Shown: in pieces, positions 4,726 to 51,238 of the stretch | Numbering within the stretch: the stretch's first letter is position 1 | Layout: every line of letters begins with the position of its first letter | Source: Thermotogota bacterium | GTDB lineage: Bacteria; Thermotogota; Thermotogae; MWEM01 | Assembly: GCA_036743375.1 (NCBI GenBank) | Contig: DAINPP010000001.1 | Location: 80,154 to 144,153, forward strand | Reading direction: 5' to 3' | DNA: 64,000 nucleotides | Translations under genes and position numbers: made by a program | Notes under the pieces: generated by a model | The model's database searches: none | What the model saw: only the letters and a program-made list of their open reading frames with translations | Told to the model about the DNA's origin: nothing

Positions 4726-5783
4726 AAGTTTTATTTATAATAATATTATTTACCTTTTTACCTTTCGTTTCATTTTCAGAAAGCGGGTTGTACCTCGAAA
4801 AGGTACAACCTTTTGTTGATCTGATCAATGATAAAGTTGAAGGATTAAATAGTAGATATCCGAATTTAAATCTGTCTGTAGAAACCGATGCCGATGGGCT
4901 CTTTCTTCTCAGCGATGATAGGGTAATTAATCGGATTACACCGGATAAAATTGACAGGATCGGTATCATAAGTCTGTTTTTAAAGACAGAGTTAACTGTC
5001 TCGATTAAATACGCCTTATTGAAAGACCTTCCCTTTGACCTTGATTCTGAATCTATTTTTGAATATCCCTATATCGATCCATCAGGGAAATTCCTTGTTT
5101 ATATCAGCGATAAGACGTACGGTAACAGAAATCCCTTTATACTTGACCTTGATACGCTGAGGGAGAAAGAAATAGTCATCCCTGAGTCAAGTGAATACTT
5201 TCCAGTTTATTTAAACGATCACCTCTACTATCTCTCTGGAAAGAAGGATCATTTTTCACTGCAACGGTATTCGTTAGAAACGGAAAAGACAACAGAAATC
5301 TCAAATGGCCAGATAAGTTGTCTAAGAACCTTCAAAGATCAGCTCTTTTTCAGTGATCGGGGAAAAATTACGGTATTGAATAACACCGGTTTACCGGTAT
5401 CTGACTATTTTTTTGATGGTTTTATTCAATCGTTTGCAGTAGATGAAAATTCTATTTATCTTTCTATGAATTTGGGAAATCAATTTGATATCTTTCATTA
5501 TTCAATAAAAAATAAGGTATTGATTAATCTTACTAATTCAAGGTATAATGAAATGGATGTTAATTTGTACAAGAAGCATTCGATTATCTTTACTTCAAAT
5601 GAAAATGGCATTTTTAATTTATATATTTATAATCTCGAAAACAATAGCAAAAGTATTATCCTCGAAGATCATCAGTTTGAATATTTTTATCCCTTTTATT
5701 CCGATGTCTTCGAGAAGATTATAGTATCTGTTTTTCAAAAGGATAAAGAACCGGTTTTCAGAATTATTCCCATTAAAGATTGA
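4677..5783 (+). CDS. Secreted hypothetical protein with a TolB/PD40-like beta-propeller character. Start codon is uncertain.
   Basis: N-terminal signal-like hydrophobic stretch LLLKVLFIIILFTFLPFVSFS. Repeated Y/F-rich beta-strand segments. The ORF overlaps the pyk 3' end by 49 nt and there is no alternative in-frame ATG nearby. Confidence 0.45.
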   Translation: MGKSGYDKYDKDSLLLKVLFIIILFTFLPFVSFSESGLYLEKVQPFVDLINDKVEGLNSRYPNLNLSVETDADGLFLLSDDRVINRITPDKIDRIGIISLFLKTELTVSIKYALLKDLPFDLDSESIFEYPYIDPSGKFLVYISDKTYGNRNPFILDLDTLREKEIVIPESSEYFPVYLNDHLYYLSGKKDHFSLQRYSLETEKTTEISNGQISCLRTFKDQLFFSDRGKITVLNNTGLPVSDYFFDGFIQSFAVDENSIYLSMNLGNQFDIFHYSIKNKVLINLTNSRYNEMDVNLYKKHSIIFTSNENGIFNLYIYNLENNSKSIILEDHQFEYFYPFYSDVFEKIIVSVFQKDKEPVFRIIPIKD

Positions 5784-5831: not shown

Positions 5832-6326
5832 GTGGAAAACATTTTTGATGAAGAAAAGAATAAATATTTTCTTCATCCTGGATATGTTTTTGTCAGTGAA
5901 GAGCCATATCTGATACACACCGTCCTTGGTTCATGTGTTTCTATTGCTGTTTGGGACAGAAACAAGAAATTTGGAGGAATGAATCATTTTGTTCTACCTG
6001 AGGCTGATGCAAAACCAAACGGAAGATATGGAAATGTCTCCATCCCTTATCTGTTTCATATGATGCAGAATATACACTCCGAAAAGAAGCACTGGGATAT
6101 TCATCTACTTGGCGGAGCTTCGAATGTTTCTATGAAATCTGCTGTGGGTAGTTTGAATGTCGATTTTGCGTTAAATTGGCTGGAAAAAAACCATTATGCC
6201 ATCTCTTCAAGGGATTTAGGAGGTTCTTTAGGCAGAAAAGTCATATTCAACACCGAAACAGGCGAATTACTCGTTTATAAAATAAAAAAGATCAGGGAAT
6301 CGGATTGGTATTCTGATGAAAAATAA
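5832..6326 (+). CDS. cheD: Chemoreceptor glutamine deamidase CheD
   Basis: GTG start after a G-rich RBS. Conserved HTVLGSCVSIAVWD and GGMNHFVLP CheD motifs. Confidence 0.85.
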   Translation: MENIFDEEKNKYFLHPGYVFVSEEPYLIHTVLGSCVSIAVWDRNKKFGGMNHFVLPEADAKPNGRYGNVSIPYLFHMMQNIHSEKKHWDIHLLGGASNVSMKSAVGSLNVDFALNWLEKNHYAISSRDLGGSLGRKVIFNTETGELLVYKIKKIRESDWYSDEK

Positions 6327-7377
6327 AAAGATAAAAATAATCATAATAGACGATTCCGTAGTTGTCAGAAAAACCGTATCGGATATTATTAATCGCGAAC
6401 CGGATATGGAGGTTATTGCTACGGCAAAAGACCCTTATGAAGGCAGAGATAAGATTGTCTATCTGAACCCGGATGTTTTGATATTGGATATAGAAATGCC
6501 AAAAATGGACGGATTGACATTTTTAGGAAAACTCATGAAATCAAAACCCATGCCCGTTATTATATTCAGTTCTCTTGCAAAAGACCGATCAAAATATGAA
6601 TATACCGCTTTTGATCTCGGTGCAGTTGGAGTAATCGAAAAGCCTCTTAACAAGGAATCTGCTTCAGATATTTATGAAGAGATGTTTGATTTGATAAGAA
6701 CCAGCTCTGGATTGACTCAAATTCAATTACGAGCACTTGAAAGAAGGATTATTCAAAAAAACGTTACGATAAAGGAATTGTCAAAAAATTTTTTACTCAC
6801 GAAACCTGTTATTGCTATAGGTGCTTCTACAGGAGGCACTCACGCGATAAGAAAAATAATTTCCAGATTACCCGAGAAGATGCCCCCTATTGTCATGACA
6901 CAGCATATGCCTAAAAACTTCACGACTCAATTTGCAAGTAATTTGAACAGTTGCTCTCAATTGACGGTATTGGAAGCACAAGGAGGTGAACAACTGAAAA
7001 ATGGTATCGTTTATCTGTCGCCCGGAGGAATGCATATGCAAATTGAGAAAAAAGGCGCTTTTTACTACACAAAGATCGTTGACGGACCATTGGTTCACCA
7101 TCAAAAACCGGCGGTAGAGGTCTTATTCAATTCGATTGCTGAAGTAATGAAGAAAGATGCCGTAGGGATTCTCCTTACCGGAATGGGTGTTGATGGAGCC
7201 GAAGGTCTTTTGAACATGAGACGAAACGGGGCGTTTACGATCGCTCAGAATGAGCAGAGCTGTGTCGTATTCGGGATGCCCAAGGAAGCTATTAAATTGG
7301 AAGCTGCGGATAGAATTTTAGATATTAACGAAATACCTGATTTTCTTGTAAAATATCTGGAGGGAATCAATGGTTAA
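6316..7377 (+). CDS. cheB: Protein-glutamate methylesterase/response regulator CheB
   Basis: N-terminal REC domain (IIIIDDS...LILDIEMPKMDG) and C-terminal methylesterase domain (GASTGG, HMQ...). Overlaps the cheD stop. Confidence 0.9.
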   Translation: MKNKKIKIIIIDDSVVVRKTVSDIINREPDMEVIATAKDPYEGRDKIVYLNPDVLILDIEMPKMDGLTFLGKLMKSKPMPVIIFSSLAKDRSKYEYTAFDLGAVGVIEKPLNKESASDIYEEMFDLIRTSSGLTQIQLRALERRIIQKNVTIKELSKNFLLTKPVIAIGASTGGTHAIRKIISRLPEKMPPIVMTQHMPKNFTTQFASNLNSCSQLTVLEAQGGEQLKNGIVYLSPGGMHMQIEKKGAFYYTKIVDGPLVHHQKPAVEVLFNSIAEVMKKDAVGILLTGMGVDGAEGLLNMRRNGAFTIAQNEQSCVVFGMPKEAIKLEAADRILDINEIPDFLVKYLEGING

Positions 7378-8182
7378 TAAACATGTATTCACTATGGCTG
7401 CATACGAAAATTTCAGTCAGTATCTTGGATCCAGATTGGGTATGGAGTGTAAATTGAATAAAAAGGGGATGCTGGAGTCCAAACTGGATAGTTTTATGCG
7501 AATACATAATATCGAAAGATACGAAGAGTTGCTTGAGTATTTAAAAAAAAATGAGGGAACCGAAGTCTGGAATCAATTCGTTCATAGAATCACTACACAT
7601 AAGACAGATTTTTTTCGGGAGAACCAACACTTTGACTTTTTAAAGCAGAATTTAACAAAGATCATGGAAAGAAACAAAAGGATACTCTTAAACAGGGAAA
7701 TAAGAATTTGGAGTGCCGGCTGTTCAACAGGCGAAGAACCTTATACAATGGCGATGTTTTTTAACGAGAATTTTCCTGAAATCTATCCGAAAATACTCGC
7801 TACGGATATCAGCACAGAAAGTTTGAAAGCGGCAATGAAGGGATTTTATCCGTTCTCCATAAAAAACGAAATGCAGCCTTATTATATCACTAAATACTTC
7901 ATCAGAACGGGAAAAGGCTTTCAAATCGATGATAGTCTAAAAAAATATATTACCTTCAGAAGTTTTAATCTCACCAAGGAGTTCTGCTTTAAAAAGGGCT
8001 TTGATATTATCTTCTGTAGAAATGTCATGATTTATTTTGGTGAATCAGTCAGAGAAACTTTGGTAAATAAATTCTACAAAGCACTGGTTACATCGGGTCT
8101 CTTCATCATCGGTCATTCCGAAAGCCTTATTAATCTGAAACAGGATTTTAAATACTTAAAGCCTACAATTTATATCAAATAA
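7370..8182 (+). CDS. cheR: Chemotaxis protein methyltransferase CheR
   Basis: IWSAGCSTGEEPYTMAM SAM-binding motif and CheR N-terminal domain. Overlaps the cheB stop. Confidence 0.9.
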   Translation: MVNKHVFTMAAYENFSQYLGSRLGMECKLNKKGMLESKLDSFMRIHNIERYEELLEYLKKNEGTEVWNQFVHRITTHKTDFFRENQHFDFLKQNLTKIMERNKRILLNREIRIWSAGCSTGEEPYTMAMFFNENFPEIYPKILATDISTESLKAAMKGFYPFSIKNEMQPYYITKYFIRTGKGFQIDDSLKKYITFRSFNLTKEFCFKKGFDIIFCRNVMIYFGESVRETLVNKFYKALVTSGLFIIGHSESLINLKQDFKYLKPTIYIK

Positions 8183-8188
8183 GCCATC

Positions 8189-9028
8189 CTATCCCTTTAC
8201 GCCGCCAGCTGTTAACCCTTTGATAATATATTTCTGTAAGCAAAGTGTGAAAACAATAATCGGAATAAGAATTATTGTACCCGAAGCGGCGAGCTGTCCC
8301 CATTTTGGGGCATATTGTCCCATAAAACCGTTAACGGCAAGCGGAGCGGTCTTTGTTGCATTCCCGGTAAGAACCAGCGCGTAGATATATTCGTTCCAGG
8401 CCATGATGAATCCAAAAACCGCCGATACAACGAGGCCAGGTGCTGTAAGTGGAAGAAAAATCTTCCAGAAAACCTGTTTTTTTGTACACCCATCAACCAT
8501 TGCCGCTTCTTCAAATGACGGCGATACAGCACTGAAAAAAGGTAACAACAACCAAATGATATACGGAAGGTTAAAACTGGTGTATGCCAGAATTAAAGCA
8601 ATATGAGAATCCGTCAGAGATAATTTGTCAAATAGCATGAACATCGGAACGGATAATGCTATCTGAGGGACCATCCTCGAAATCAGGAATGAATAGGACA
8701 TCATCTTTCTTCCCTTAAATCTGAATCTTGCAATTCCATAAGCAGCCATCGAACCAAAAATCAACGATATAAACGTTGAAGAAAGCCCTATAATCAAACT
8801 GTTTCCAATGGAAGGAAGAAAGTCACTTTTCTGAAATATCAGTTCATAACTCTTTGTAGTGAATTGAAACTCAAAAGGATTGCTGTTCCTTATATCCAGA
8901 TCCCGTTTAAATCCATTGGAGATCACTATCCAGATAGGAAAAAGTTCAGCAAGTACAATAATCAGGGCAACAATAAATATCAGCCATTTTTTTATTCTCT
9001 TTTTATTTTTCATCTTTATCATTTTCAT
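8189..9028 (-). CDS. Carbohydrate ABC transporter permease (MalG-like, CUT1 family)
   Basis: Six TM segments and the EAA loop (EEAAMVDGCTKKQVFWKIFLP). Confidence 0.9.
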   Translation of the reverse strand: MKMIKMKNKKRIKKWLIFIVALIIVLAELFPIWIVISNGFKRDLDIRNSNPFEFQFTTKSYELIFQKSDFLPSIGNSLIIGLSSTFISLIFGSMAAYGIARFRFKGRKMMSYSFLISRMVPQIALSVPMFMLFDKLSLTDSHIALILAYTSFNLPYIIWLLLPFFSAVSPSFEEAAMVDGCTKKQVFWKIFLPLTAPGLVVSAVFGFIMAWNEYIYALVLTGNATKTAPLAVNGFMGQYAPKWGQLAASGTIILIPIIVFTLCLQKYIIKGLTAGGVKG

Positions 9029-9034
9029 GCCCCT

Positions 9035-9982
9035 TTACATCGTATCAATAGCCATATTTTTTCTGACGAGACCAAATGCAAACAACAGTGAAATCACGAT
9101 CAAAAGGACAGCCATAGCGGATGCATAGCCAAGTTTTCCAAATTCAAACGCTTGTTTGTGTATGTATAGAGAAAACAGCATGGTTCCATTTCCCGGGCCA
9201 CCTTTTGTCATGACAAATACCTCTGAGAATATTCTCAGGGCATCAATTGTTCTCAACAATATTGCGGTTGCAATTGTTCCCCTTAACATGGGTAGAGTGA
9301 TTGAAAAAGTTTTTTTGAAAAAACCGGCTCCATCAATTTCAGCCGCCTCCATAATATCACCGGGTAAGCTGCTGATCCCCGCATAAAGAATCATAAACAT
9401 AAACGGCCACATTCTCCAGATATCTTGGACGATAACCGCGGTATATGCAAGTGATTGATCGCTCAGGATCCCCTGTGGAAATTCAAGACCAATCAGTGAT
9501 AACAAATACGTTAAAGCGCCATATCTAGGTTGCAGCATCAATTTCCACGTTAAACCGGATAGAATAGGAAGGATAAATACCGGTAAAAGGAGAAGAGTTC
9601 TCAAAAAAGCGGATAATGGAAATTCATGATTGAACAAGATAGCGACTAAAAAGCCTATAATCAATTCTACGGGAATTGCTATAATGATAAATCCGAGTTG
9701 TAAGGCCAGTGATCTCCAGAATTCGCCATCTTTAAACAAGTCAAAATAATTATTTAAACCGACAAATCCCCTTGTCCCATCATCTACCTGCGGCCAATTG
9801 AAAAATGAGAGACCCGTTCCGTAAATAACGGGAAAAACCAGAACGACACCAACAATAATGACTGCGGGAAGAATAAAATATAAAAAAGGCTTCCCCTCCT
9901 TACGGGGGGAAAGCCCTTTGTTAAAAATCGGATTATTCATATTTCTCCAGTAATTCGTCAAGCCCATTGATTGTCGATTCAA
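9035..9982 (-). CDS. Carbohydrate ABC transporter permease (MalF-like). Start may be the internal ATG at 9967 or 9940.
   Basis: EAA loop MEAAEIDGAGFFKKTFSITLP with multiple TM helices. The longest ORF overlaps the binding-protein gene by 50 nt, so a later start is likely. Confidence 0.85.
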   Translation of the reverse strand: MNRQSMGLTNYWRNMNNPIFNKGLSPRKEGKPFLYFILPAVIIVGVVLVFPVIYGTGLSFFNWPQVDDGTRGFVGLNNYFDLFKDGEFWRSLALQLGFIIIAIPVELIIGFLVAILFNHEFPLSAFLRTLLLLPVFILPILSGLTWKLMLQPRYGALTYLLSLIGLEFPQGILSDQSLAYTAVIVQDIWRMWPFMFMILYAGISSLPGDIMEAAEIDGAGFFKKTFSITLPMLRGTIATAILLRTIDALRIFSEVFVMTKGGPGNGTMLFSLYIHKQAFEFGKLGYASAMAVLLIVISLLFAFGLVRKNMAIDTM

Positions 9983-11195
9983 CGGCTTCTTCTGGAGTCA
10001 TTTTTTCTGTTACTGCTGCAAGCCAGTATGTTTTTATTACATCCGAGTATTCCGGATAATGTGTACTTCTATTGGGTCTGCTAACTGCATATACTCCAGC
10101 TTCTGCCATTCCGGCATACCACGGCTTTTCCGAAGAGAGTTCCTGAAGAAGATCTGTTCTAACAGGAGTCATTCCAAGTTCAGCGAGTTTAAGCCCCACC
10201 GTGTAATTGTTTACCCAATAGGCGAATTCAGCGGCAGCGGATTGGTGTTCTGAAGCCTTCGGAATACCGAATATCCAACATCCCCTTACAGCCGCTCTTT
10301 TTTCCGGACCGGAAGGTGGCGCTGTATAAAGAATCTGACCGGCTACCATTGATTCATCTTCATTTTCATGTGATGGAACTATTCCCGGCCACTGGAACAT
10401 TGAAAATACGAGTCCGTCGCTAAAGGCCCCTATTCTTTCCGCATGACCCATGCTGAGAGAACCTTCCGGAGAGTACTTTATAAGCTCTTTGTAGTAATTA
10501 ATTGCTTCTGCCGCTTTTGTCCGATCAAGTGTTACTTCATATTTTCCATCTACCATCGTCAATGGACTGGTTCCAAACGATTCATAGAAGAGAATCGCTT
10601 CACAGGTTGCGCCTTCACTGTTTGCAGTAAATGGGGCAAATCCGAATATTCCCTGTTCACTGAAAAATATGGACATATCAAGCAGCTGATCGAACGTCTC
10701 GGGTACTTGAAGATCGTATCCGTATTCCGCTTGAAATGCTTTTTGATTTGACTCATCCTCGACAAGGTCTTTTCTTGTCATCCAGATATACATATTTCCA
10801 TTATTTGGGATACCGACAAGTTCCCCGTCCCATTCTGCCGCTGCAAAAATTGCCGCAGGAATATCATCTGTTCCTACCTTTGGGAATATTTTCCCTTCCG
10901 GCCACTGTGAATAAGGTATAAGAAGGTCTCCGAACTTTGCAACATTTCCCTCATCAATCGCTACAAGATCGTAATTTGCCTTGTTCTCCGTTACATTAAG
11001 TGATGTTTTCTGAAGCATTGACCCCGATGGAATTAATTCAAGGGATACTTTGATTCCAGTTGCCTTTTCAAACTCTGATGTAAGCGTTTTCCAGGACTGC
11101 GAATGAGCATCATCCCAGGTTAAAACCTTAATTGTTTCCGCAAACATCATAGTCGAAGATAAAACGACTAACATAACTAAAAAAAGTTTCCTCAT
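9933..11195 (-). CDS. Extracellular sugar-binding protein of an ABC transporter
   Basis: Signal peptide MRKLFLVMLVVLSSTMMFAETIKV. About 420 aa, typical of family 1 solute-binding proteins. First gene of the sbp-perm-perm operon. Confidence 0.85.
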   Translation of the reverse strand: MRKLFLVMLVVLSSTMMFAETIKVLTWDDAHSQSWKTLTSEFEKATGIKVSLELIPSGSMLQKTSLNVTENKANYDLVAIDEGNVAKFGDLLIPYSQWPEGKIFPKVGTDDIPAAIFAAAEWDGELVGIPNNGNMYIWMTRKDLVEDESNQKAFQAEYGYDLQVPETFDQLLDMSIFFSEQGIFGFAPFTANSEGATCEAILFYESFGTSPLTMVDGKYEVTLDRTKAAEAINYYKELIKYSPEGSLSMGHAERIGAFSDGLVFSMFQWPGIVPSHENEDESMVAGQILYTAPPSGPEKRAAVRGCWIFGIPKASEHQSAAAEFAYWVNNYTVGLKLAELGMTPVRTDLLQELSSEKPWYAGMAEAGVYAVSRPNRSTHYPEYSDVIKTYWLAAVTEKMTPEEAVESTINGLDELLEKYE

Positions 11196-11425
11196 TTAAT
11201 AAAACCTCCCTGAAAAGATTGAGATCTAATTATTATAGAGCTTAAATTAATACCAAAACTATTATACTCAACAAAACTATATAATGCAAAACAGAAATCT
11301 GCCGTTTTTTAAAGTAACTTACAGGATATTAACCAATAGGCGAGTATTTATCTGATAGTTGTACCAAATCATAAATAATAGGGTATTTTGATTTTAATTA
11401 AAACTTTTAATTTATTTTTGTTTTT

Positions 11426-11434
11426 TGGTATAAT
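11426..11434 (+). promoter_or_regulatory. Extended -10 element (TGGTATAAT) of the ROK/sugar-operon promoter
   Basis: TGnTATAAT consensus about 35 nt upstream of the ROK start. AGAGGAAAGG RBS follows. Confidence 0.5.
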
Positions 11435-11467
11435 TCAAACTGGTACAAAAAGAGGAAAGGTGATTTG

Positions 11468-12706
11468 ATGAAAAAAACAATAATGGATCTTAATTCAATT
11501 AAAGTGGCAAACAGATCGGTCTTGTTGAAAATTCTCAGTGAAAATGGCCCGATGTCAAGAAAAGATATTTCGGAATTGTCAGGATTATCTGCGGGCGCCA
11601 TCACGATTATTTCAAACGAACTGTTGAATGAAGGGATTATCAAAGAAGTTGGACATGCAGACTCTACGGGAAAAGCCGGGAGGAAAAAAATTCTGATAGA
11701 CATAGAAAAAAAACACAAATATATACTCGGTATCAACATAGAAAAAGAGCGTATTTCGCTTGCGATATCCGATCTTGATCTTAATATCATCATAGATGAT
11801 GAATTTGATATGGAGAATGATATCCCCCCGGAAGAACTGTTTCTTGATATTGTAGAGAAGATAAAAGACCTCCTCTGGAAAATGGATATCTCAAAGAGTA
11901 ATGTCCTCGGTATAGGTGTAGGGGTTGTAGGAAGGGTAGATCCGGTAAATGGAATCAGTATGGAAGCCTATGATATCTGGAATGAACAGGTGCCTATCAA
12001 AGATTTGTTGGAAAGAAGTCTGAAAATTCCCGTTGTAGTGGATAATAATGTAAGAGCACTTGCGCTGGCCGAGATTTATTGTTCGGAAATGAAAGATCTG
12101 AGTGATTTTATTTTTCTTAAGCACGGTCCGGGACTTGGTGCCGCCATTGTAATAAACAGAAAGCTTCTGTATGGATTTCAGAATATGGCCGGTGAGATTG
12201 GCCATATCATTGTGGATCCTGAAGGACCTGAATGCGGTTGTGGCCAACGCGGCTGTCTTGAAACACTCATATCAACGAGGCGATTAAAAAAAGAGATAAA
12301 GGAGAATTTCAATGAAACTGAGTATCCGGTTCTTTATAAACTGTGTAATGGAGAAAAAGACATCATCAGAAGTTCTATGATTTTCAGAGCTTTTGAGCTC
12401 GGAGAAGAAAAGATCATTGAGAAAATCCAAAAAAATCTGATTTATCTTTCTGTCGGAATAATCAGTATCATGAAAACGGTAGATCCGGAAAAAATCATCT
12501 TTTTTGGAGATTTGTTTAAACACAGTGTACTAATTGAACAGCTTAAAAAAACTATGATTTCACAGATAAATGATGAATCTATTGGTGAAAAATTAATAAC
12601 AAGTTGTCTTGAGTATCGAAGTCCCGCCATAGGAAGTCTTGCCATAGCCCTTGAAAGACTTTTTTATGAAACCGGAGCCATTTACAAATCATACAGACTG
12701 GAGTGA
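11468..12706 (+). CDS. ROK-family transcriptional regulator (NagC/XylR type)
   Basis: N-terminal winged HTH (SRKDISELSGLSAGAITIISNELLNEGII), ROK sugar-kinase-like fold, and Zn motif GHIIVDPEGPECGCGQRGCLE. ATG at 11468 after an RBS. Confidence 0.85.
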   Translation: MKKTIMDLNSIKVANRSVLLKILSENGPMSRKDISELSGLSAGAITIISNELLNEGIIKEVGHADSTGKAGRKKILIDIEKKHKYILGINIEKERISLAISDLDLNIIIDDEFDMENDIPPEELFLDIVEKIKDLLWKMDISKSNVLGIGVGVVGRVDPVNGISMEAYDIWNEQVPIKDLLERSLKIPVVVDNNVRALALAEIYCSEMKDLSDFIFLKHGPGLGAAIVINRKLLYGFQNMAGEIGHIIVDPEGPECGCGQRGCLETLISTRRLKKEIKENFNETEYPVLYKLCNGEKDIIRSSMIFRAFELGEEKIIEKIQKNLIYLSVGIISIMKTVDPEKIIFFGDLFKHSVLIEQLKKTMISQINDESIGEKLITSCLEYRSPAIGSLAIALERLFYETGAIYKSYRLE

Positions 12707-12710
12707 TTAT

Positions 12711-14027
12711 ATGAGCGAGAAGTTAAAAATAGGGGTCGTCTGTCTTGTCAGAAAGACGTTTGATTTTGAGGCAGCTGCTGAGATTTATCAGGAGATCATA
12801 AAAAAATATGGAAGAAGAGAGGATGTTGAATATATATTCATAAAACGGACAATCGTTGAACCCGAGGAGGCAAAAAATGCCGCAGATGAACTGTTGAAAA
12901 GCAATATCGACGGTGTGGTCATCATAAGCGGGACTTTCCATCTGGGGCATCTCGCACTGATTATCAACAGGGAAATAAAAAAGCCACTTTTACTCTGGGG
13001 GCTTCCAGAATTACCCTATAACGGGGGTAAAATCAGATTGAATTCCGTGTGCGGAGTTAATTTAAATGCCTCCAATCTTTATAAATCCGGTAATGATACA
13101 TTCCATGTCTCCGTATCCGGTGAAATGGATGAAGATTGGATCAATGCACTGAAGATAAAAAAAATTCTCAGCAGTTCTCACATCGGAATTCTCGGTTACA
13201 GGGCAAGGGGTTTTTTTAATGTTGGCATAGATGAACTGGGAAGTTATGCGGAAACAGGAATGCTCCTTGATCATTACGATCTGATAGATGTTATGAATAC
13301 TGAAACGGATTGGGTATCGGTTGAAAAGGCCGAAGAAGAAATAAAGAGTATTTTCAACACAAAACCTGTTACTTCAGATCAATTAAGAAAAGTGGCGGAA
13401 TTGTCTGTGAAATTTGAAAATTTCATGACCTCAAATCATATTGATGCACTCGCTATCCGTTGCTGGCCTGAATTTGCCGCTCAATATGGCATAGCACCAT
13501 GTGCTTCAATGTCTTATCTGCAGTCAAAGGGATTTATTCTCGGCTGTGAGGGAGATGTTGAAGGGGTAATGAGTATGCTCGCCCACAAGGCTGTTGGTGC
13601 AGAAACACCTTTTCTCGCAGATTTCTCGCAAGTCGATCTTGAAAATAATTTTGCCCTGCTATGGCATTGCGGTGTAGCACCATGTAATCTTACCGATGGA
13701 GTCTGTGACTGTTCGCTTGATGCCTATCATATGGGGGGAAAAGGTGTGACGGCAGATTTTGTCATGAAATCTGGTGAAATATCGGTTCTCCGGATAGATA
13801 CGGCAAGGGGGAAAACGCGAATGCTGCTTGCCAGGGGAACAGCTTACCCCATGGAAAAAGAACTTCGGGGGACGTATATGAAATCAAGGTTTGATATCCC
13901 GTTAAATGAATTACTCGATAAAGTCGTTTATAACGGCATTGCACATCATATTTCAGTCGTATACGGCGATTATACAAAATCATTTGAAATTCTCTCACAT
14001 ATCAACAAATGGGAAATTATCAGATAG
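12711..14027 (+). CDS. Aldose-ketose isomerase of the L-fucose/L-arabinose isomerase (FucI/AraA) superfamily. Candidate sugar (sulfoquinovose?) isomerase.
   Basis: ATG at 12711 after a GGAGTG RBS, 4 nt past the ROK stop. Motif FILGCEGDVEGVMSML resembles the AraA catalytic GAEGDWK region, and RCWPEF resembles conserved FucI/AraA-like segments. Confidence 0.6.
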   Translation: MSEKLKIGVVCLVRKTFDFEAAAEIYQEIIKKYGRREDVEYIFIKRTIVEPEEAKNAADELLKSNIDGVVIISGTFHLGHLALIINREIKKPLLLWGLPELPYNGGKIRLNSVCGVNLNASNLYKSGNDTFHVSVSGEMDEDWINALKIKKILSSSHIGILGYRARGFFNVGIDELGSYAETGMLLDHYDLIDVMNTETDWVSVEKAEEEIKSIFNTKPVTSDQLRKVAELSVKFENFMTSNHIDALAIRCWPEFAAQYGIAPCASMSYLQSKGFILGCEGDVEGVMSMLAHKAVGAETPFLADFSQVDLENNFALLWHCGVAPCNLTDGVCDCSLDAYHMGGKGVTADFVMKSGEISVLRIDTARGKTRMLLARGTAYPMEKELRGTYMKSRFDIPLNELLDKVVYNGIAHHISVVYGDYTKSFEILSHINKWEIIR

Positions 14028-14042
14028 GTATTTTCTAATTCT

Positions 14043-14948
14043 ATGAGTGGGAAATCTATCGTTTCATTATTATTACTTAATCTGATTTGGGGGAGTTTTT
14101 ATGTGGCGAATAAATTCTCCCTCTCAACACTATCCCCTCTGTTTGTTGGTACATCGGTCAGATTTCTCGCTATGCTTTTTCTAACTGTGTATATCATCCT
14201 CAAAGGGGATTTCAGAAACCTTTTCAACGTAAAACCGGTTATACATAAACTTATTATAATAGGTATGCTTGGATTCTCCCTTGATATAACCGCCTTTCTC
14301 GGGCTACAGCTTTCTACGGCCTCAAATGCCTCTATTCTTTTAAAAGCCGATGTTCTGTTTACAAATTTGATCTCAGTATTTGTCTTAAAACAGAAATTCA
14401 CAAAAAAGGACTGGCTGTTAACGGGTATTATTCTCTTTGGGACATTCCTTGTTATGGATGTTGATCTCACACGGTTTCAACTGAATGGAGTCGGGGATTT
14501 CCTGTTTATTGCAAGCGCTTTCTGTGTTGCCTTAAACGGATTTGTGATTAAATCAGTTCAACAGGATACACGTGTAAATATACGGGATACAACCGTGGCT
14601 TTTTATAACAACGGCATAACGTTTGGGATCTTCTTTATACTGTTTCTGATATACGATAAACAGGTTCCATTCGAACAGATTGAATCGAACAATCTGGTAA
14701 TCTACTCCCTCTTTTACACCGGATTGATGCAGACTGCCATATATATCCTGTATTATTATAATCTGAGAATGTTGCAGGTTTGGATTGTCAGAATAATGTT
14801 ACTACTGATGCCAATTGTTGCTTCTTTTACCAGTTTCTTCGTTCTTGGAGAGACACTCGATCTATTTCAGATCGTCGGAATGATCACTGTAATACTCGGA
14901 ACAATGGGAATAATACTCGAACATAAAGGGGAAAATAAGGGGGAATAA
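14043..14948 (+). CDS. EamA/DMT-family transporter. Candidate exporter of the pathway end product.
   Basis: Ten predicted TM helices in two EamA-like halves. N-terminus LNLIWGSFYVANKF is typical. Confidence 0.8.
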   Translation: MSGKSIVSLLLLNLIWGSFYVANKFSLSTLSPLFVGTSVRFLAMLFLTVYIILKGDFRNLFNVKPVIHKLIIIGMLGFSLDITAFLGLQLSTASNASILLKADVLFTNLISVFVLKQKFTKKDWLLTGIILFGTFLVMDVDLTRFQLNGVGDFLFIASAFCVALNGFVIKSVQQDTRVNIRDTTVAFYNNGITFGIFFILFLIYDKQVPFEQIESNNLVIYSLFYTGLMQTAIYILYYYNLRMLQVWIVRIMLLLMPIVASFTSFFVLGETLDLFQIVGMITVILGTMGIILEHKGENKGE

Positions 14949-14951
14949 CAC

Positions 14952-16067
14952 ATGGACTTCAGATTTTTTGTACCTGTAGAAATCTATTTTGGTCAAGACG
15001 AGATAAACAGGTTAAATACGATAATAAAAAATGGCCGTTGCCTGATTATCAGCGATCCCGTCCTTAAAGAGACAGGAATTGTTGATAGGATTAAAGAGCG
15101 TCTTTCATCCGAATGCATTGTCAACGAATTTTGCGAAGTAGAGCCAAATCCTTCCTGCGAAACGGTAGAAAGAGGAGCCGCCCTGATAAAGAAGATAAAT
15201 GTCGATTTCATCATTGCAGCAGGTGGAGGAAGTACAATTGATGTGGCAAAGGCCATTTCCTGTTTAAGTACTGCCGAAGGCGATTTCAAAGAATATCTTT
15301 ACGGGGAAAGGATATTTGACAGAAGAAACACAAAATTGATAGCCATCCCAACCACTTCTGGAACCGGCAGTGAAGTGACAAATGTCGGTGTTTATACAGA
15401 TCTGTCAAAGGGAATAAAAATGCCACTCGTAACAGATTTGTTCTGGTGTGATTATGCCATAATAGATCCGACACTGACAGTAACACTCCCCAAAAGGGCA
15501 ACAGCTTCTACATCACTTGATGCATTTACTCATGCGATAGAAGCTTATTGGGCGGATTCCACACAGCCAATCAGTAAATCGCTTTCCCTGCAGGCGATGA
15601 AATTAATTATAGAAAACCTTGAGCTTGCTATTATCACGCCAGATAATTACTCTGCCAGGGAAAATCTCCTCTTCGCAAGTCTGATAGCAGGTATGTCTTT
15701 TGCACAGACAAGAACAACAATTCTTCATGCCCTGAGCTTCCCACTAACCAGTCGGTACGGACTCGAACATGGGTTTGCCTGCGCTATTGCGCTTCCGGAA
15801 GTCATGAAAGATAATTATGAATTTTACAAAGATGAAATGGACAACCTGTTAAAATATCTTGATTTCGAAGATATTGAAGGCCTTTCCGCTTATTTTTCAG
15901 ACATGATGAAAAATGTTGGAGCACCGGTGTGTTTAAGCGAAATCGGAATCAGCTCAGAAGATCTTGATGAAATTGTCTTGACCACTTTGAATGCACCGAT
16001 TTCAAAGTTGAATCCAAAAAAATATACCTACGAAGAACTCAAAAGAACACTTAACAAAATCTTATAA
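14952..16067 (+). CDS. Iron-containing alcohol dehydrogenase. Candidate sulfoacetaldehyde reductase of the TauF/SqwF type.
   Basis: Fe-ADH signature AAGGGSTIDVAKAI plus downstream His-rich metal site (HAIEAYW, ILHALSFPL). Confidence 0.9.
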   Translation: MDFRFFVPVEIYFGQDEINRLNTIIKNGRCLIISDPVLKETGIVDRIKERLSSECIVNEFCEVEPNPSCETVERGAALIKKINVDFIIAAGGGSTIDVAKAISCLSTAEGDFKEYLYGERIFDRRNTKLIAIPTTSGTGSEVTNVGVYTDLSKGIKMPLVTDLFWCDYAIIDPTLTVTLPKRATASTSLDAFTHAIEAYWADSTQPISKSLSLQAMKLIIENLELAIITPDNYSARENLLFASLIAGMSFAQTRTTILHALSFPLTSRYGLEHGFACAIALPEVMKDNYEFYKDEMDNLLKYLDFEDIEGLSAYFSDMMKNVGAPVCLSEIGISSEDLDEIVLTTLNAPISKLNPKKYTYEELKRTLNKIL

Positions 16068-16071
16068 AGAG

Positions 16072-16911
16072 GTGAATGTCTTGACTGAAACGGAAATTAA
16101 GTACCTTGAAAAAAAGGCAAAAGAAATCAGAAGTCTTACTATTGAAATGATAGGCAGACTTGGGGTCGGTCATATTGGTGGATCCCTTTCTATCATCGAT
16201 GCGCTGGTTGCACTTTATTATCATGAAATGAAAATTGATCCCAAAGATCCAAAATGGGTAGAAAGAGATCATTTCATTCTCTCAAAGGGACACGGTGGGC
16301 CCGGAGTATACGCGGTACTGGCCGATAAAGGCTTCTTTCCTAGAGAATGGATAAGCACGTTAAATCAGCCAAATACAAATCTGCCTTCTCATTGCGATAA
16401 AAATCTGACGCCGGGTATCGATATGACGGCCGGTTCATTGGGTCAGGGATTGTCTGCAGCCATTGGTATGGCTATTGCGAAGAAGATAGATAAGAGGGAT
16501 TCAAGAGTTTACTGTATTATCGGAGATGGAGAAAGTCAGGAAGGGCAGATATGGGAAGCGGCAATGCTTGCACCTGCCAAAAAACTTGATAATCTCACCG
16601 TTTTTCAGGATTACAACAAGATGCAGATCGATGGAACGATTGAAGAGATCAACGCTCTCGAACCATTGACGGATAAATGGACGGCATTTGGCTGGAACGT
16701 TTATTCAGTCGATGGACACAACATTGAAGCGATTTGTACGGCTATAGAAAAGGGTAAAGAAGTAAAAGATAAACCGACTATGATAGTACTCCATACGATA
16801 AAGGGAAAAGGCGCCTTCTTCGCTGAAGGAAAATTATCCTGTCATAATATGAAAGTTTCAGAAGAGGATTGGAAAAAGGCCGTAGAAGAATTGACAAAGG
16901 AAGAGGTGTAA
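16072..16911 (+). CDS. Transketolase, N-terminal (TPP-binding) subunit
   Basis: GHIGGSLS, SKGHGGP and GDGESQEG thiamine-diphosphate motifs. Split-TK architecture. GTG at 16072, alternative TTG at 16081. Confidence 0.9.
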   Translation: MNVLTETEIKYLEKKAKEIRSLTIEMIGRLGVGHIGGSLSIIDALVALYYHEMKIDPKDPKWVERDHFILSKGHGGPGVYAVLADKGFFPREWISTLNQPNTNLPSHCDKNLTPGIDMTAGSLGQGLSAAIGMAIAKKIDKRDSRVYCIIGDGESQEGQIWEAAMLAPAKKLDNLTVFQDYNKMQIDGTIEEINALEPLTDKWTAFGWNVYSVDGHNIEAICTAIEKGKEVKDKPTMIVLHTIKGKGAFFAEGKLSCHNMKVSEEDWKKAVEELTKEEV

Positions 16912-16915
16912 GCAT

Positions 16916-17854
16916 ATGATGCACGAAAAGGAAATGAGACAGGTATACGCCGAACTTCTCGTTGAAAGAGCAGAGAAAGATGATAGAATAGTCGTTCTCG
17001 AAGCTGATCTGATGAAAGCGACGGGAACAACACCTTTTAAGGAAAAATTCCCCGAGAGGTTTGTGGATGTTGGAGTTGCCGAAGCAAACATGATCGGAAC
17101 AGCTGCAGGTATGGCCGTTATGGGAAAGATTCCCTTCGCCCATTCATTTACACCTTTTGCAACAAGAAGGGTACTGGACCAAATAGCCATCTCTATCGCT
17201 TACGCAAAAGTTAATGCAAAGATTGGGGGCACAGATCCCGGAATCATGGCCGAATTGAACGGGGGAACCCATATGAGTGTGTCCGATGCGGGTCTTATCA
17301 GAGGTCTTCCGAATATGATAGTGGTAGAACCCGCCGATGCAATACAGCTGAAATCTCTATTCCCTCAGATTACCGATGTTGAAAACCCTGTCTATATGAG
17401 ACTTGCCAGAAAAGCTAAAGAACTGTATTTTGAGGATGAAACTGAATTTGAATTGGGTAAGATTTACCAGATGAAAGAGGGACATGATGTCACCATTATT
17501 TGTTCAGGCCTGATGATCAAGTATTCAAAGATGGCAGTGGAAATCCTTGAAAAAGAGGGTATCAGTGTCAGATTGCTTAACATGCATACCCTTAAGCCGG
17601 TCGATAAAGAAATGATCATTAAAGCAGCAGAAGAAACCGGTGCCATTGTTACCGCTGAAAATCACAGTATTGTCAACGGATGGGGAACGGCCGTTGCAGA
17701 AGTTGTTGTAGAGAATTGCCCGGTCCCGATGGAAAGAATAGGCATCAGGGATCATTTTGGTGAGGTAGGACTCGTTCCATTTCTGCTTGAAAAATATCAC
17801 ATGACGGAAAAAGATATCGTAGATGCCGTAAAAAAAGTGTTAAAGAGAAAATAA
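16916..17854 (+). CDS. Transketolase, C-terminal (pyrimidine-binding) subunit
   Basis: VDVGVAEANMIGTAAGMA motif. Follows the N-terminal subunit gene by 4 nt. Confidence 0.9.
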   Translation: MMHEKEMRQVYAELLVERAEKDDRIVVLEADLMKATGTTPFKEKFPERFVDVGVAEANMIGTAAGMAVMGKIPFAHSFTPFATRRVLDQIAISIAYAKVNAKIGGTDPGIMAELNGGTHMSVSDAGLIRGLPNMIVVEPADAIQLKSLFPQITDVENPVYMRLARKAKELYFEDETEFELGKIYQMKEGHDVTIICSGLMIKYSKMAVEILEKEGISVRLLNMHTLKPVDKEMIIKAAEETGAIVTAENHSIVNGWGTAVAEVVVENCPVPMERIGIRDHFGEVGLVPFLLEKYHMTEKDIVDAVKKVLKRK

Positions 17855-17864
17855 GGCGATTCGC

Positions 17865-19907
17865 ATGATAAAAATAGTTGAAGGGACAGAGGAACTCGAG
17901 ATCTTTTTCAAAGACAGAAAATTAATAAAACATTCGGAAGGATTTCCCGCTTTTTCATTTGGAAACGGAAAGGCTGTTTTCGATATGTATCATGGAAATT
18001 TTGATATCAAAAACGCGCTTGAATCAAAATACCCTCTAAGGCATTTTGAAGTGATAGAGGCGGGGGAAAGAAATGCCATCATAAGGTTTTTCTATAACGG
18101 TTTGTGTCTGAAACTCCTCCTCAATGTAACAGATGAAGGATTGTTAGAACTCTTTCCACATTGCGAAGGGGGGACATTCAACAGATTCTGGATAAGGTTC
18201 TGTTCTCAGAAGGATGAAGCGGTTTACGGTTGTGGTGAACAGTATTCGGAGCTTAATTTAAAGGGAAAAAGAGTCCCTTTGTGGGTATCGGAGCAGGGGA
18301 TCGGTCGGAATAAAAACGAATTACTGACCTTCTTCGCGGATAAATTTGAAAGAGCAGGGGGAGACTGGTATACAACTTATTTCCCTCAACCCTCCTTTAT
18401 CACCTCTTCAGCTTTTTTCTGTCATGTTAATGATACCAGCTATATGGAATTCGACTTTACACCTGAAGATTATACAGAACTGGAAACATGGCACATTCCT
18501 TCAAAAATAGTCATTGGTGTTGAAGAGAATTTTTTAGAAACGGTTGAAAGCCAAAGTAAATATCTTGGATTACAGCCGGAGTTACCGGACTGGATATTTG
18601 ATGGTGTTATTCTTGGATTACAGGGTGGCACGGAAGTTGTTCTTCCAAAGGTGGAGCAGGCCATAGAAAAGAAGGTAAAAATTTCTGCCATGTGGATACA
18701 GGACTGGGAAGGGAAAAGAATCACAACTTTCGGAAAACAGCTTATGTGGGATTGGCATTATGAAAAAGAGATGTATCCAAATCTTCCGGAAACGATTAAG
18801 CAATTAAAGGAAAAGGGTATTCGTACGATGGGCTATATCAATCCTTTTCTCGCTACTGAAGGACAATTGTACAAAGAGGCACATGAAAAAGGCTATACCC
18901 TTAAAAACAATGCGGGAGAAGAATATCTCGTTGTCGTCACCACTTTTCCTGTTGCAATCGTGGACCTGACCAATCCGGATGCATATAACTGGCTAAAAGA
19001 GGTTATCAAATCGAATATGATAGGTATTGGGTTATCAGGCTGGATGGCTGATTTTGCCGAATACACCCCGACAGATTCTCACCCGTTCAGCGGGGAAGAT
19101 GCTGAATTACTTCACAACAGATTCCCGGTTTTATGGGCACAGTTAAACAGAGAAGCCGTTGAAGACTCCGGAAAGCTCGGAGAAGTTGTTTTTTTCATGC
19201 GGGCCGGTTACAGTTTTTCACAGAAGTATAATACGCTGATGTGGAGTGGGGATCAGATGGTAGACTGGAGTATTGACGATGGTCTTCCTTCCGTTATCCC
19301 ATCGGCCTTATCACTTGGGTTGAGTGGTTTTGGCATCTGTCATTCAGATATTGGCGGCTATACAACCATTGCCAATCAGATGGGAAATGTTCACCGATCT
19401 AAAGAACTTTTTATGAGATGGACCGAACAATCGGCCTTTTCTCCGGTTATGAGAACACATGAGGGAAACAGACCCGATTTAAATATTCAGTTTGATTCAG
19501 ATGATGAAATACTGGAACATTTTGCAGAGATGATCAGAATACACGTGAAGATGAAAAAATACCTGATGTATCTCAACGTTGAAAATGCAGAAAAGGGGTT
19601 ACCCTTCATGCGATCTTTGTACATGCACTATTCCAGTACGGCAAAAGCCGAAGAATATGGATTAAAAGATATTAAATATCAGTATCTTCTCGGCCGGGAT
19701 CTCCTGGTATGTCCGGTTATTGAGCCTGGACAGACAAGAAAAACCGTTTTGTTACCTGAAGATCGCTGGTTGAATATCTGGACAGGGGAAGAATATGAAC
19801 ACGGTATTTATGAAGTAAGCTCGCCTTTAAGAAGGCCCCCGGTTTTTGTGAGAAAAGAATCGGAATTCAAGGATTTTTTCTTGAAGTTGAAGGAGGAAAA
19901 CCAATGA
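17865..19907 (+). CDS. Glycoside hydrolase family 31. Candidate sulfoquinovosidase (YihQ-like).
   Basis: GH31 nucleophile motif GWMADFAEYTP, acid/base motif MWSGDQ, and HSDIGGYTT with Tyr (alpha-glucosidases have Phe here). QDWEGKR...GKQLMWDW region. Confidence 0.8.
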   Translation: MIKIVEGTEELEIFFKDRKLIKHSEGFPAFSFGNGKAVFDMYHGNFDIKNALESKYPLRHFEVIEAGERNAIIRFFYNGLCLKLLLNVTDEGLLELFPHCEGGTFNRFWIRFCSQKDEAVYGCGEQYSELNLKGKRVPLWVSEQGIGRNKNELLTFFADKFERAGGDWYTTYFPQPSFITSSAFFCHVNDTSYMEFDFTPEDYTELETWHIPSKIVIGVEENFLETVESQSKYLGLQPELPDWIFDGVILGLQGGTEVVLPKVEQAIEKKVKISAMWIQDWEGKRITTFGKQLMWDWHYEKEMYPNLPETIKQLKEKGIRTMGYINPFLATEGQLYKEAHEKGYTLKNNAGEEYLVVVTTFPVAIVDLTNPDAYNWLKEVIKSNMIGIGLSGWMADFAEYTPTDSHPFSGEDAELLHNRFPVLWAQLNREAVEDSGKLGEVVFFMRAGYSFSQKYNTLMWSGDQMVDWSIDDGLPSVIPSALSLGLSGFGICHSDIGGYTTIANQMGNVHRSKELFMRWTEQSAFSPVMRTHEGNRPDLNIQFDSDDEILEHFAEMIRIHVKMKKYLMYLNVENAEKGLPFMRSLYMHYSSTAKAEEYGLKDIKYQYLLGRDLLVCPVIEPGQTRKTVLLPEDRWLNIWTGEEYEHGIYEVSSPLRRPPVFVRKESEFKDFFLKLKEENQ

Positions 19908-20377
19908 AAAAAATTGTTATTGGAGCCGATAAGTCGGGATTTACACTTAAAGAGGCATTAAAAGAGCATCTTTTTGAGCAGGGATATGAGGTTGAAGATC
20001 TTGGCATGAAGACACCGGAAGATTTTCAGGCTTATTATGAAGTTGCCCCAAAGGTAGCCCGAAAGATACAGGCGGGGGAGTACGAAAAGGGACTACTCTG
20101 CTGCGGAACCGGAATGGGAATGGCAATCGTCGCCAATAAATTCAAAGGGATCTATGCCGCAGTCGTTGAAGGCAGTTACGGGGCAAAGATGTGCAAAGTC
20201 ATCAACAACGCAAACATTCTGACAATGGGTGGCTGGAAACTGGCTCCTCAGGAAGCCATAGACATGCTTGACAGATGGCTGAATACGGAATTTCTTGAAG
20301 GCTTTGAATTTAAAAAGGATTTTCTTACAAATGCTTTTGAGGAAGTTAAAAGGATAGAAGATGAAAATTTCAAGTAA
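19904..20377 (+). CDS. RpiB/LacA/LacB-family sugar(-phosphate) isomerase. Candidate 4-deoxy-4-sulfoerythrose isomerase of the SqwI type.
   Basis: KIVIGADKSGF and CCGTGMGMAIVANK motifs diagnostic of the RpiB family. AAGGAGG RBS. Overlaps the GH31 stop by 4 nt. Confidence 0.85.
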   Translation: MKKIVIGADKSGFTLKEALKEHLFEQGYEVEDLGMKTPEDFQAYYEVAPKVARKIQAGEYEKGLLCCGTGMGMAIVANKFKGIYAAVVEGSYGAKMCKVINNANILTMGGWKLAPQEAIDMLDRWLNTEFLEGFEFKKDFLTNAFEEVKRIEDENFK

Positions 20378-20391
20378 TTGATATAAAATAA

Positions 20392-20442
20392 AAGAGATTT
20401 CTTTTGGCCTTCCTCGCCGGTTGAAGTCTCTTTTTCTTTTTA
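20392..20442 (+). terminator. Rho-independent terminator closing the sugar operon
   Basis: Stem AAGAGATTTC...GAAGTCTCTT (one mismatch) followed by TTTTTCTTTTT. Confidence 0.7.
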
Positions 20443-20485
20443 TCTATACAATTTTATTAAAATATTTCTTCTAAAAAGCAAAATA

Positions 20486-36481: not shown

Positions 36482-36531
36482 GGTGTTTCATCATCTTTAA
36501 ACCAAAGTTTTTTAAGGCATATATCCCTGCA

Positions 36532-51204: not shown

Positions 51205-51238
51205 TTCTCACCAATCATTCCATAATCCGTTGATTATC

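Follow-up and report, generated by a model that had tools for sequence, protein, structure and literature searches.

A predicted sulfoglycolytic transketolase operon with a variant YihQ-family glycosidase in an uncultured Thermotogota bacterium

Introduction

Sulfoquinovose (SQ) is made on a gigatonne scale, and its anaerobic breakdown to isethionate feeds sulfide-producing bacteria. One route to isethionate is the sulfoglycolytic transketolase (sulfo-TK) pathway, which yields isethionate and two xylulose-5-phosphate per SQ. In Clostridium sp. MSTE9 it is encoded by a gene cluster (Liu et al. 2021) that PMC9594981 and PMC12890257 describe. The canonical isomerase of this pathway is SqvD, a member of the FucI family (PF02952) and not YihS, and the isomerase activity of SqwI has only been proposed (PMC9594981). 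For the transketolase, a sulfofructose-specific signature, RAFDR, which replaces the phosphate-orienting RSFHR, was defined on the Faecalicatena enzyme (PMC11659671). Reviews list Clostridia, Spirochaetes and Thermotogae as carriers of sulfo-TK (PMC12890257). Within Thermotogota, however, carriage of the pathway is known from genome mining alone.

Here, we analyse a predicted sulfo-TK locus on a 64,000-nucleotide stretch of an uncultured Thermotogota bacterium (assembly GCA_036743375.1, contig DAINPP010000001.1, positions 80,154 to 144,153), hereafter called the window, whose numbering is used throughout. The locus consists of eight plus-strand genes and a divergent sugar importer. We describe the signature residues of its enzymes, a variant sulfonate pocket in its glycosidase and its conservation in related genomes.

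Results

Gene content and predicted pathway

The operon comprises eight plus-strand genes (11465-20377) that encode a ROK regulator, an isomerase, an EamA-type transporter, an iron-dependent alcohol dehydrogenase (Fe-ADH), the two subunits of a split transketolase, a GH31 glycosidase and an RpiB paralog. All gaps and overlaps between listed open reading frames (ORFs) are 15 nt or less: from the ROK gene onwards, the gaps measure 4, 15, 3, 4, 4 and 10 nt, and the last two genes overlap by 4 nt. An earlier interpretation made from the DNA letters, the sequence-only reading, had named these genes and the divergent importer; our ORF map and Pfam and NCBIfam scans recovered the same gene set at the same coordinates. 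It had also described a tight unit of seven genes downstream of the ROK gene. The tight spacing stands, but the unit is more likely to contain eight genes than seven, because the ROK gene lies only 4 nt from the isomerase gene.

The published description of sulfo-TK matches the operon gene for gene (PMC9594981, PMC12890257). We consider it probable (roughly 0.8) that the locus is a sulfo-TK operon, with each step predicted from homology, signature residues and conserved gene context. In the proposed pathway, a CUT1-type ABC system, consisting of a binding protein and two permeases with an ATPase encoded elsewhere, would import SQ or sulfoquinovosyl-glycerol (SQ-glycerol), from which the YihQ-family GH31 enzyme would free SQ. 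The FucI-superfamily isomerase (SqvD type) would convert SQ to 6-deoxy-6-sulfofructose. The split thiamine diphosphate (ThDP)-dependent transketolase (SqwGH type) would then transfer C1-C2 to glyceraldehyde-3-phosphate, giving xylulose-5-phosphate and 4-deoxy-4-sulfoerythrose, which the RpiB paralog (SqwI type) would isomerise to sulfoerythrulose. A second round of the transketolase would yield sulfoacetaldehyde, to be reduced to isethionate by the TauF-like Fe/Zn ADH with NADH and exported by the EamA transporter. The ROK protein would control both divergent units, probably through a conserved intergenic palindrome. This putative route, from a glycosidase to isethionate export, is the one that the sequence-only reading had proposed, and it was supported by all sequence tests that we ran.

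Pfam and NCBIfam scans detected no sugar kinase gene within the operon. This absence fits a sulfonate standing in for phosphate, and so do the transketolase and the RpiB paralog, both of which have lost phosphate-binding residues (see below).

Transketolase and RpiB paralog

The SqwG-like N subunit of the transketolase (16072-16911; PF00456, 190 bits) is predicted to bind ThDP. It is 57% identical to the subunits from clostridial clusters and 66-89% identical to those from Thermotogota; its start was placed 9 nt later in a Logan gene call. In the SqwH-like C subunit (16916-17854; Transket_pyr and Transketolase_C), comparison with the ordinary split transketolase 6YAK revealed a change from Ser to Ala at position 35 and from His to Asp at position 107, while R8 and R165 are kept. 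Judged from R8, A35, D107 and R165, the C subunit carries the published RAFDR-type signature of sulfofructose transketolases.

The sequence-only reading had held that grouping of the transketolase with housekeeping enzymes would speak against the pathway. In an exhaustive search of 1.84 billion representatives, the 150 best hits began with 12 sequences that all have Asp at the His position, and sequences of the RSHR type appeared only from rank 13.

The SqwI-like RpiB-family isomerase (19904-20377) matches the RpiB/LacAB models, with the catalytic CGTG motif intact. Its identity to paralogs in sulfo-TK clusters of Clostridia, Spirochaetota and Fervidobacterium is 51-64%. No diagnostic residues have been published for SqwI. 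The motifs D[KL]SG, INNAN and TMGGW are common to the RpiB paralog and 12 sulfo-TK-linked paralogs from Thermotogota, Clostridia and Spirochaetota. In the RpiB paralog and in all 12 of these, the C-terminal phosphate motif GGRHxxR is replaced by EGF-EFKKDFLTNA or a similar sequence.

SQ isomerase

The isomerase (12711-14027), a predicted SqvD/SftI-type SQ-sulfofructose isomerase of the FucI superfamily, has a single NCBIfam match, SftI, over its full length (E = 6e-57, 193 bits). On the Pfam model Fucose_iso_C it scores 28.8 bits, just short of the cut-off of 29.3. Identity is 57-59% to the isomerases of three clostridial sulfo-TK clusters (L015, L016 and L019) and 25-28% to Bacillus-type isomerases. 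This pattern parallels the published split, in which the clostridial-type isomerase of Faecalicatena is about 32% identical to the SOS1 isomerase, as opposed to 65% within the clostridial type. As the search against solved structures returned nothing at E ≤ 0.01, the residues of the isomerase were judged by conservation among homologs and not by comparison with FucI: in 48 YihQ-linked homologs, E280, D282, D304, H319, H413, R250 and R361 show almost no variation.

A different gene follows the GH31 gene in Fervidobacterium (L020, 12019-13470) and Pseudothermotoga (L018, 11923-13239). Its products are 22-28% identical to the window isomerase, and the 483-aa Fervidobacterium protein has no Pfam match. 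This gene may represent a further divergent type of SQ isomerase.

Alcohol dehydrogenase and exporter

The predicted TauF/SqwF-like metal-dependent sulfoacetaldehyde reductase (14952-16067; Fe-ADH and ADH_Fe_C) has 6JKO/6JKP as its top solved relative (204 bits, against 173 for the runner-up, and about 32% identity). This relative is the sulfoacetaldehyde reductase BkTauF of Bifidobacterium kashiwanohense (PMC6616044). The metal ligands are kept, as are F252, T257 and F265, the substrate residues of BkTauF defined by mutagenesis, and D192, H261 and H275, while Q196 is replaced by His. Grouping with propanediol or butanol dehydrogenases, which the sequence-only reading had named as evidence against its proposal, was thus not found. 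BkTauF itself functions in taurine nitrogen assimilation and is not an enzyme of sulfoglycolysis. The window ADH and the ADHs of clostridial sulfo-TK clusters have a motif in common, F..(K/R)T...H..SFPLT, which is absent from the Bacillus ADHs that lie near yihQ in L043 and L065.

Between the isomerase and the ADH genes lies the EamA/DMT transporter gene (14043-14948; PF00892, 119 bits). The protein contains two PF00892 repeats and received no more specific assignment. Searches by tblastn revealed no TauE homolog anywhere in the 64-kb window, nor in the Thermotogota loci, and EamA homologs of 29-39% identity occur in the YihQ clusters L010, L020 and L072. From its position, the EamA protein is a candidate isethionate exporter and functional counterpart of SqwE.

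The GH31 glycosidase has a Q-type pocket

The GH31 gene (17865-19907) encodes a probable sulfoquinovosidase of the YihQ family. On the YihQ model (NF007746/PRK10426; cut-off 553) its score is 880.6 bits, against 190 bits on the model for the YicI alpha-xylosidase and 131 bits on MalA. Its alignment to E. coli YihQ (E = 7e-213) and to SftG of E. rectale (6PNR) runs from end to end, and its full-length identity to three kinetically characterised sulfoquinovosidases is about 55%.

The sulfonate pocket of characterised sulfoquinovosidases is formed by Arg301, Trp304 and Tyr508, plus Q288 (PMC8006165, PMC12780224). Comparison with E. coli YihQ, the A. tumefaciens SQase and SftG (PDB 5AED, 5OHS and 6PNR) revealed that the equivalents of D405, D472, Q288, W304 and Y508 are kept. 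Arg301, however, is replaced by Gln (Q292), Pro145 of YihQ is replaced by Arg at position 136, and the loop at YihQ 366-373 reads VVTTFPVA instead of the (D/E)FGEF..G of characterised enzymes. The sequence-only reading had named a lack of the sulfonate-binding residues as evidence against a sulfoquinovosidase; all of those compared are present except the arginine. Because Arg301 is replaced, we class the GH31 enzyme as a YihQ-family member of an uncharacterised type, here called Q-type as opposed to R-type, and not as a proven sulfoquinovosidase.

To place this substitution, we draw on 121 aligned GH31 sequences and on a genome scan that covered the best 80 loci of a species-representative genome collection. 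The catalytic residues D396 (nucleophile, D405 in YihQ) and D463 (acid/base, D472) are invariant in all 121 sequences. Gln occupies the Arg301 position in 59 of the 121 closest database homologs and in 18 of 79 species-representative loci (L001-L007, L013, L018, L020, L021, L035, L046, L048, L049, L055, L066 and L076), spread over Thermotogota, Spirochaetota, some Bacillota and archaea. Of 119 GH31 sequences, 115 have a nearest neighbour of their own type, and a UPGMA tree of the alignment implies four changes between the Q and R states; both analyses are too crude to establish that the Q-type is monophyletic. The Gln at 301 is thus neither an error nor a one-off, but a clade-wide variant.

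The substitution does not stand alone. Gln is coupled to the loop at 357-364, which reads VxTTFPxA in Q-type and DxGEFxxG in R-type sequences. Lys or Arg at position 136 is found in 17 of 18 Q-type but in only one of 61 R-type loci (Fisher p = 4e-15, ignoring phylogeny). The genomic neighbourhoods also differ, as a split transketolase and an RpiB paralog adjoin nine of 18 Q-type versus four of 61 R-type loci (p = 1e-4, again ignoring phylogeny). Further Q-type genes adjoin DUF4867 or SqvD in other phyla, and one from Peptococcaceae (P0016) lies outside any recognisable sulfoglycolysis cluster. We found no solved structure of a Q-type enzyme and no description of the variant in the searchable literature.

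On the simplest interpretation, Q-type enzymes remain sulfoquinovosidases whose sulfonate pocket has been rebuilt. More tentatively, and at somewhat less than even odds, they might represent a second sulfonate-recognition architecture, in which Arg301 was lost and the charge was maybe moved to Lys/Arg136 (Pro145 in YihQ) together with a remodelled VxTTFPxA loop. This subclass, possibly with an altered substrate range, would be the type that sulfo-TK clusters preferentially contain. The Arg by which sulfoquinovosidases are defined is missing from about a quarter of YihQ homologs at the species level (the 18 of 79 loci above), which bears on surveys based on yihQ and on how sulfonate recognition is understood.

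In Peptococcaceae (L081/L082, 732-4638), a lone Q-type YihQ gene was observed, with genes for an Ldh_2 protein, a PfkB kinase, a DHDPS-type aldolase and a SIS/HTH_6 regulator 5-9 kb away. Ldh_2 is presumably the family that includes the sulfolactate dehydrogenase ComC, and these genes could be a different sulfosugar-related set.

Conservation in related genomes

The only recorded exact match to the GH31 protein comes from a Logan assembly (SRR28385528), where it lies on a 26.8-kb contig. The nearest locus, L001, is on the 3.98-Mb chromosome of an uncultured Thermotogae metagenome-assembled genome (MAG; OY763325.1) and has the same order of eight genes with a divergent importer. Its proteins are 76-95% identical to those of the window, and the two regions are collinear between CheR and MutS, with a nucleotide identity of about 78%. 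The same operon, whole or in part, was found in four MAGs of Thermotogaceae and Kosmotogaceae (L002-L005), and Fervidobacterium islandicum H-21 (L020), the one cultured organism among the carriers found, contains the cluster in rearranged form. The gene arrangement is therefore no chance event, as it recurs in related Thermotogota genomes.

Weighing the evidence

Several observations weigh against a sulfo-TK operon. The isomerase falls below the 700-bit equivalog cut-off of SftI, the RpiB paralog below the cut-offs of the nearest NCBIfam equivalog models, and the ADH reaches 211 bits on the SarD model, whose cut-off is 700. The ADH is also only 36-37% identical to clostridial sulfo-TK ADHs and about 32% identical to BkTauF. 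SmoF, a characterised SQ-glycerol binder, was not matched when the binding protein was compared with solved structures. The sulfonate pocket of the GH31 enzyme has the Trp, Tyr and Gln equivalents but Gln for Arg301, and Arg occupies this position in each of the six distinct sulfoquinovosidase-like sequences with a solved structure. Lastly, Clostridium sp. MSTE9 was absent among the best 80 loci of the genome scan; L015, L016 and L019 serve as clostridial proxies for its cluster, and comparison with the characterised MSTE9 enzymes is indirect. For the isomerase, the score may reflect the model: the published identity of only about 32% between a clostridial-type and the SOS1 isomerase suggests that clostridial-type isomerases fall under the cut-off of SftI, a model that appears to represent the Bacillus/Priestia type.

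Scores below the cut-offs of sulfo-specific models would fit an ordinary neutral-sugar operon, with a GH31 alpha-glucosidase or alpha-xylosidase, a transketolase and RpiB of the pentose-phosphate type and a generic ADH, and all of these families, like sugar ABC systems and ROK proteins, are common in carbohydrate operons. We regard this as very improbable. The GH31 enzyme prefers the YihQ model by a wide margin (880 bits, against 190 for YicI and 131 for MalA), the transketolase lacks the phosphate-orienting Ser and His, and the RpiB paralog lacks GGRHxxR. The operon has no kinase, its catabolic genes enclose one for an anion-type exporter, its ADH is most similar to a sulfoacetaldehyde reductase, and in Clostridia the same gene set co-occurs with TauE and DUF4867. 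Slighter still is the chance that the operon encodes another published branch, either the sulfoacetate-forming sulfo-TK pathway (SqwD and SqwKL) or the bifurcated transketolase/transaldolase route of Faecalicatena and Caproiciproducens. Both are documented in anaerobes, including Spirochaetes and Firmicutes, but neither the operon nor the window ORFs scanned contained an aldehyde dehydrogenase, CoA ligase or transaldolase, and the terminal roles are filled by the Fe-ADH and the exporter.

The GH31 pocket raises a different alternative, which we consider unlikely but better founded than these two: the same enzyme chemistry may act on an entry substrate other than SQ-glycerol, with the Q-type GH31 enzyme recognising, for example, another sulfosugar conjugate or aglycone, or a differently substituted C6. 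The Gln at the Arg301 position, K/R136 and the remodelled loop would then be signs of this other specificity. Loss of the sulfonate-binding Arg is consistent with this, and so is the coherent clade (18 of the 79 loci) in which further substitutions accompany it, K/R136 being present in 17 of the 18 Q-type loci versus one of 61 R-type loci; Q-type enzymes have no solved structure, and the Peptococcaceae gene P0016 lies outside sulfoglycolysis clusters. Conversely, W304, Y508, Q288 and both catalytic Asp residues are kept in the Q-type, and Q-type genes adjoin DUF4867 and SqvD in other phyla. The downstream enzymes of Q-type clusters share the sulfo-specific signatures of R-type clusters, and the downstream pathway would require a 6-sulfo-hexose that can be isomerised to a 2-ketose. 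A sulfo-TK operon that starts from SQ or SQ-glycerol is the reading that we prefer.

Importer

The importer genes are on the minus strand, divergent from the operon. The solute-binding protein (SBP; 9933-11195, SBP_bac_1 and SBP_bac_8) is a candidate SQ or SQ-glycerol binder. It has no NCBIfam equivalog, and its top match among solved structures is MalE3 of T. maritima. Homologs of 39-51% identity adjoin YihQ-like genes in L013, L018, L020 and L022. Permease 1 (9035-9982; PF00528) is UgpA/MalF-like, with UgpA and GlcT as its top NCBIfam matches, under cut-off, and is kept beside YihQ-like genes in other anaerobes. Its true start may lie further downstream, because the ORF that begins at the listed TTG shares 50 nt with the SBP gene. 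Permease 2 (8189-9028; PF00528, 74 bits) is MalG/GlcU-like; its top NCBIfam matches, GlcU and MalG, are both under cut-off. It is 95% identical to its L001 counterpart, and homologs of 50-55% identity adjoin YihQ-like genes in Fervidobacterium, Pseudothermotoga and Halanaerobium. From gene context alone, SQ or SQ-glycerol is the candidate substrate of this importer. No ABC ATPase gene was found beside it or among the window ORFs scanned by Pfam, with a few ORFs left unscanned or without a Pfam match.

Some related loci contain a further transporter gene of the MFS_2 (GPH) family, which we take to be the family of the E. coli yih-cluster transporters. It is complete in L003 (4691-6148), L005 (4680-6146) and L020 (4584-6023), and is cut by the contig end in L002 and L004. 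The gene is located between the isomerase and EamA genes in L003 and L005, and between the importer and EamA genes in L020. It was not found by tblastn in the window or in L001, which have the ABC system alone.

ROK regulator and control region

The NagC/Mlc-like ROK regulator (11465-12706; PF00480, 169 bits) is probably the product of the first operon gene. It has an N-terminal winged helix-turn-helix (HTH_24/MarR at residues 19-60) and scores 182 bits on the NagC model, where the cut-off is 650. Homologs of 38-41% identity are found in the clostridial sulfo-TK clusters L015 (13150-14349), L016 (7437-8636) and L019 (7442-8641), and in the latter two the ROK gene is directly upstream of the isomerase gene. 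A ROK-type SQ-responsive regulator appears to be unstudied, as the only sulfosugar regulator discussed in the literature that we found is the E. coli repressor CsqR.

The 269-nt intergenic region between the importer and the operon (11196-11464) contains promoter-like elements on both strands and a perfect 8+8 palindrome, AATTAAAA-c-TTTTAATT, at 11396-11412. The palindrome is just upstream of an extended -10 element, TGGTATAAT. In an alignment with L001 and L003, conserved blocks cover this element and, partly, the palindrome, which we propose as a candidate ROK operator.

Terminator and flanking genes

Downstream of the RpiB gene is an intrinsic terminator-like hairpin with a U-tract (20390-20445, plus strand; fold and inverted repeat). 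The segment 20378-20452 folds into a hairpin of -23.7 kcal/mol (z = -6.19), a stability that none of 200 shuffled sequences reached, and a U-run lies partly within it and continues beyond it. This bears out the clear terminator of the sequence-only reading. A simple consensus terminator scan listed no site 3' of the RpiB gene, because the A/U-rich stem fails the G+C rule of that scan.

The flanks are housekeeping genes, with CheD, CheB and CheR upstream and SMC, RluD and MutS downstream, as is the rest of the 64-kb window, and the G+C content of the cluster is that of its surroundings. The cluster is part of a conserved chromosomal neighbourhood and not a recent island. Pfam scans of most window ORFs detected no transaldolase, aldehyde dehydrogenase, CoA ligase, sulfite reductase or isethionate lyase. 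The whole window also contains no tRNA gene and no Rfam family at the gathering threshold, and in this Rfam search no riboswitch was found upstream of the ThDP-dependent genes, i.e., the split transketolase (16072-17854) and DXS (45723-47636).

The CheD-CheB-CheR set (5832-8182) directly abuts the importer genes, and two genes for methyl-accepting chemotaxis proteins are located 14 kb downstream (34454-38031). Four ORFs of 590, 335, 368 and 326 aa (49432-52246, 4677-5783 and 44026-45006) had no Pfam match at E ≤ 1e-5 or 1e-6.

Discussion

If our interpretation is correct, the window adds a complete sulfo-TK operon, conserved among relatives, from an uncultured Thermotogota lineage whose genome measures about 4 Mb. 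Its practical value is modest: it offers a compact eight-gene set, with a DMT exporter and without DUF4867, and annotation can be made sharper by the signature residues of its transketolase C subunit, RpiB paralog and ADH. The sequence-only reading had gone further and suggested a variant architecture, based on a FucI/AraA-type isomerase in place of YihS and on a lineage that was not obviously known for sulfoglycolysis. That argument falls, because the FucI-type SqvD is canonical and Thermotogae are already listed as carriers. Its third element, the EamA-type exporter, is a real difference, as it replaces the TauE-type SqwE. The locus is an ordinary new example of the published pathway, with modest real differences (the EamA exporter and the lack of DUF4867) plus the Q-type pocket.

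Compared with the clostridial clusters, the common core consists of a YihQ-family GH31 enzyme, SqvD, SqwGH, SqwI, SqwF, a sugar ABC importer and a ROK gene beside the isomerase gene. Identity to the L019 proteins is 59% for the isomerase, 57% and 52% for the N and C subunits of the transketolase, 59% for the RpiB paralog, 50% for the GH31 enzyme, 41% for the ROK protein and 36% for the ADH, and the signatures of the transketolase, the RpiB paralog and the ADH recur in the clostridial clusters. The canonical order in L019 is binding protein, two permeases, SqwG, SqwH, TauE exporter, SqwF, SqwI, ROK, SqvD, YihQ and DUF4867, and TauE and DUF4867 are found in all three of the L015, L016 and L019 clusters. 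The Thermotogota cluster instead has EamA/DMT in place of the TauE-type SqwE, a different gene order with all genes co-directional, and a Q-type GH31 enzyme where the three clostridial clusters have the R-type. DUF4867 (SqvB/SftX) was not found in the window, L001-L005 or L020 by tblastn with two DUF4867 queries. Although most sulfo-TK clusters have it, it is non-essential to the class, since clusters without it have been published (PMC11968277).

Isethionate formation by a transketolase route in strict anaerobes, as predicted here, is also described for rumen Sphaerochaetaceae, Caproiciproducens and Ca. Limivicinus (PMC13219744) and for Faecalicatena sp. DSM22707 (PMC11659671). Those systems are backed by metabolite and transcript or proteome data from consortia, rumen microcosms and pure cultures (Faecalicatena sp. 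DSM22707 and Caproiciproducens KNHs216). Their clusters contain a transaldolase (Faecalicatena, Caproiciproducens), an NAD-dependent GH188 sulfoquinovosidase or no YihQ, whereas the cluster in the window has a GH31 enzyme and no transaldolase.

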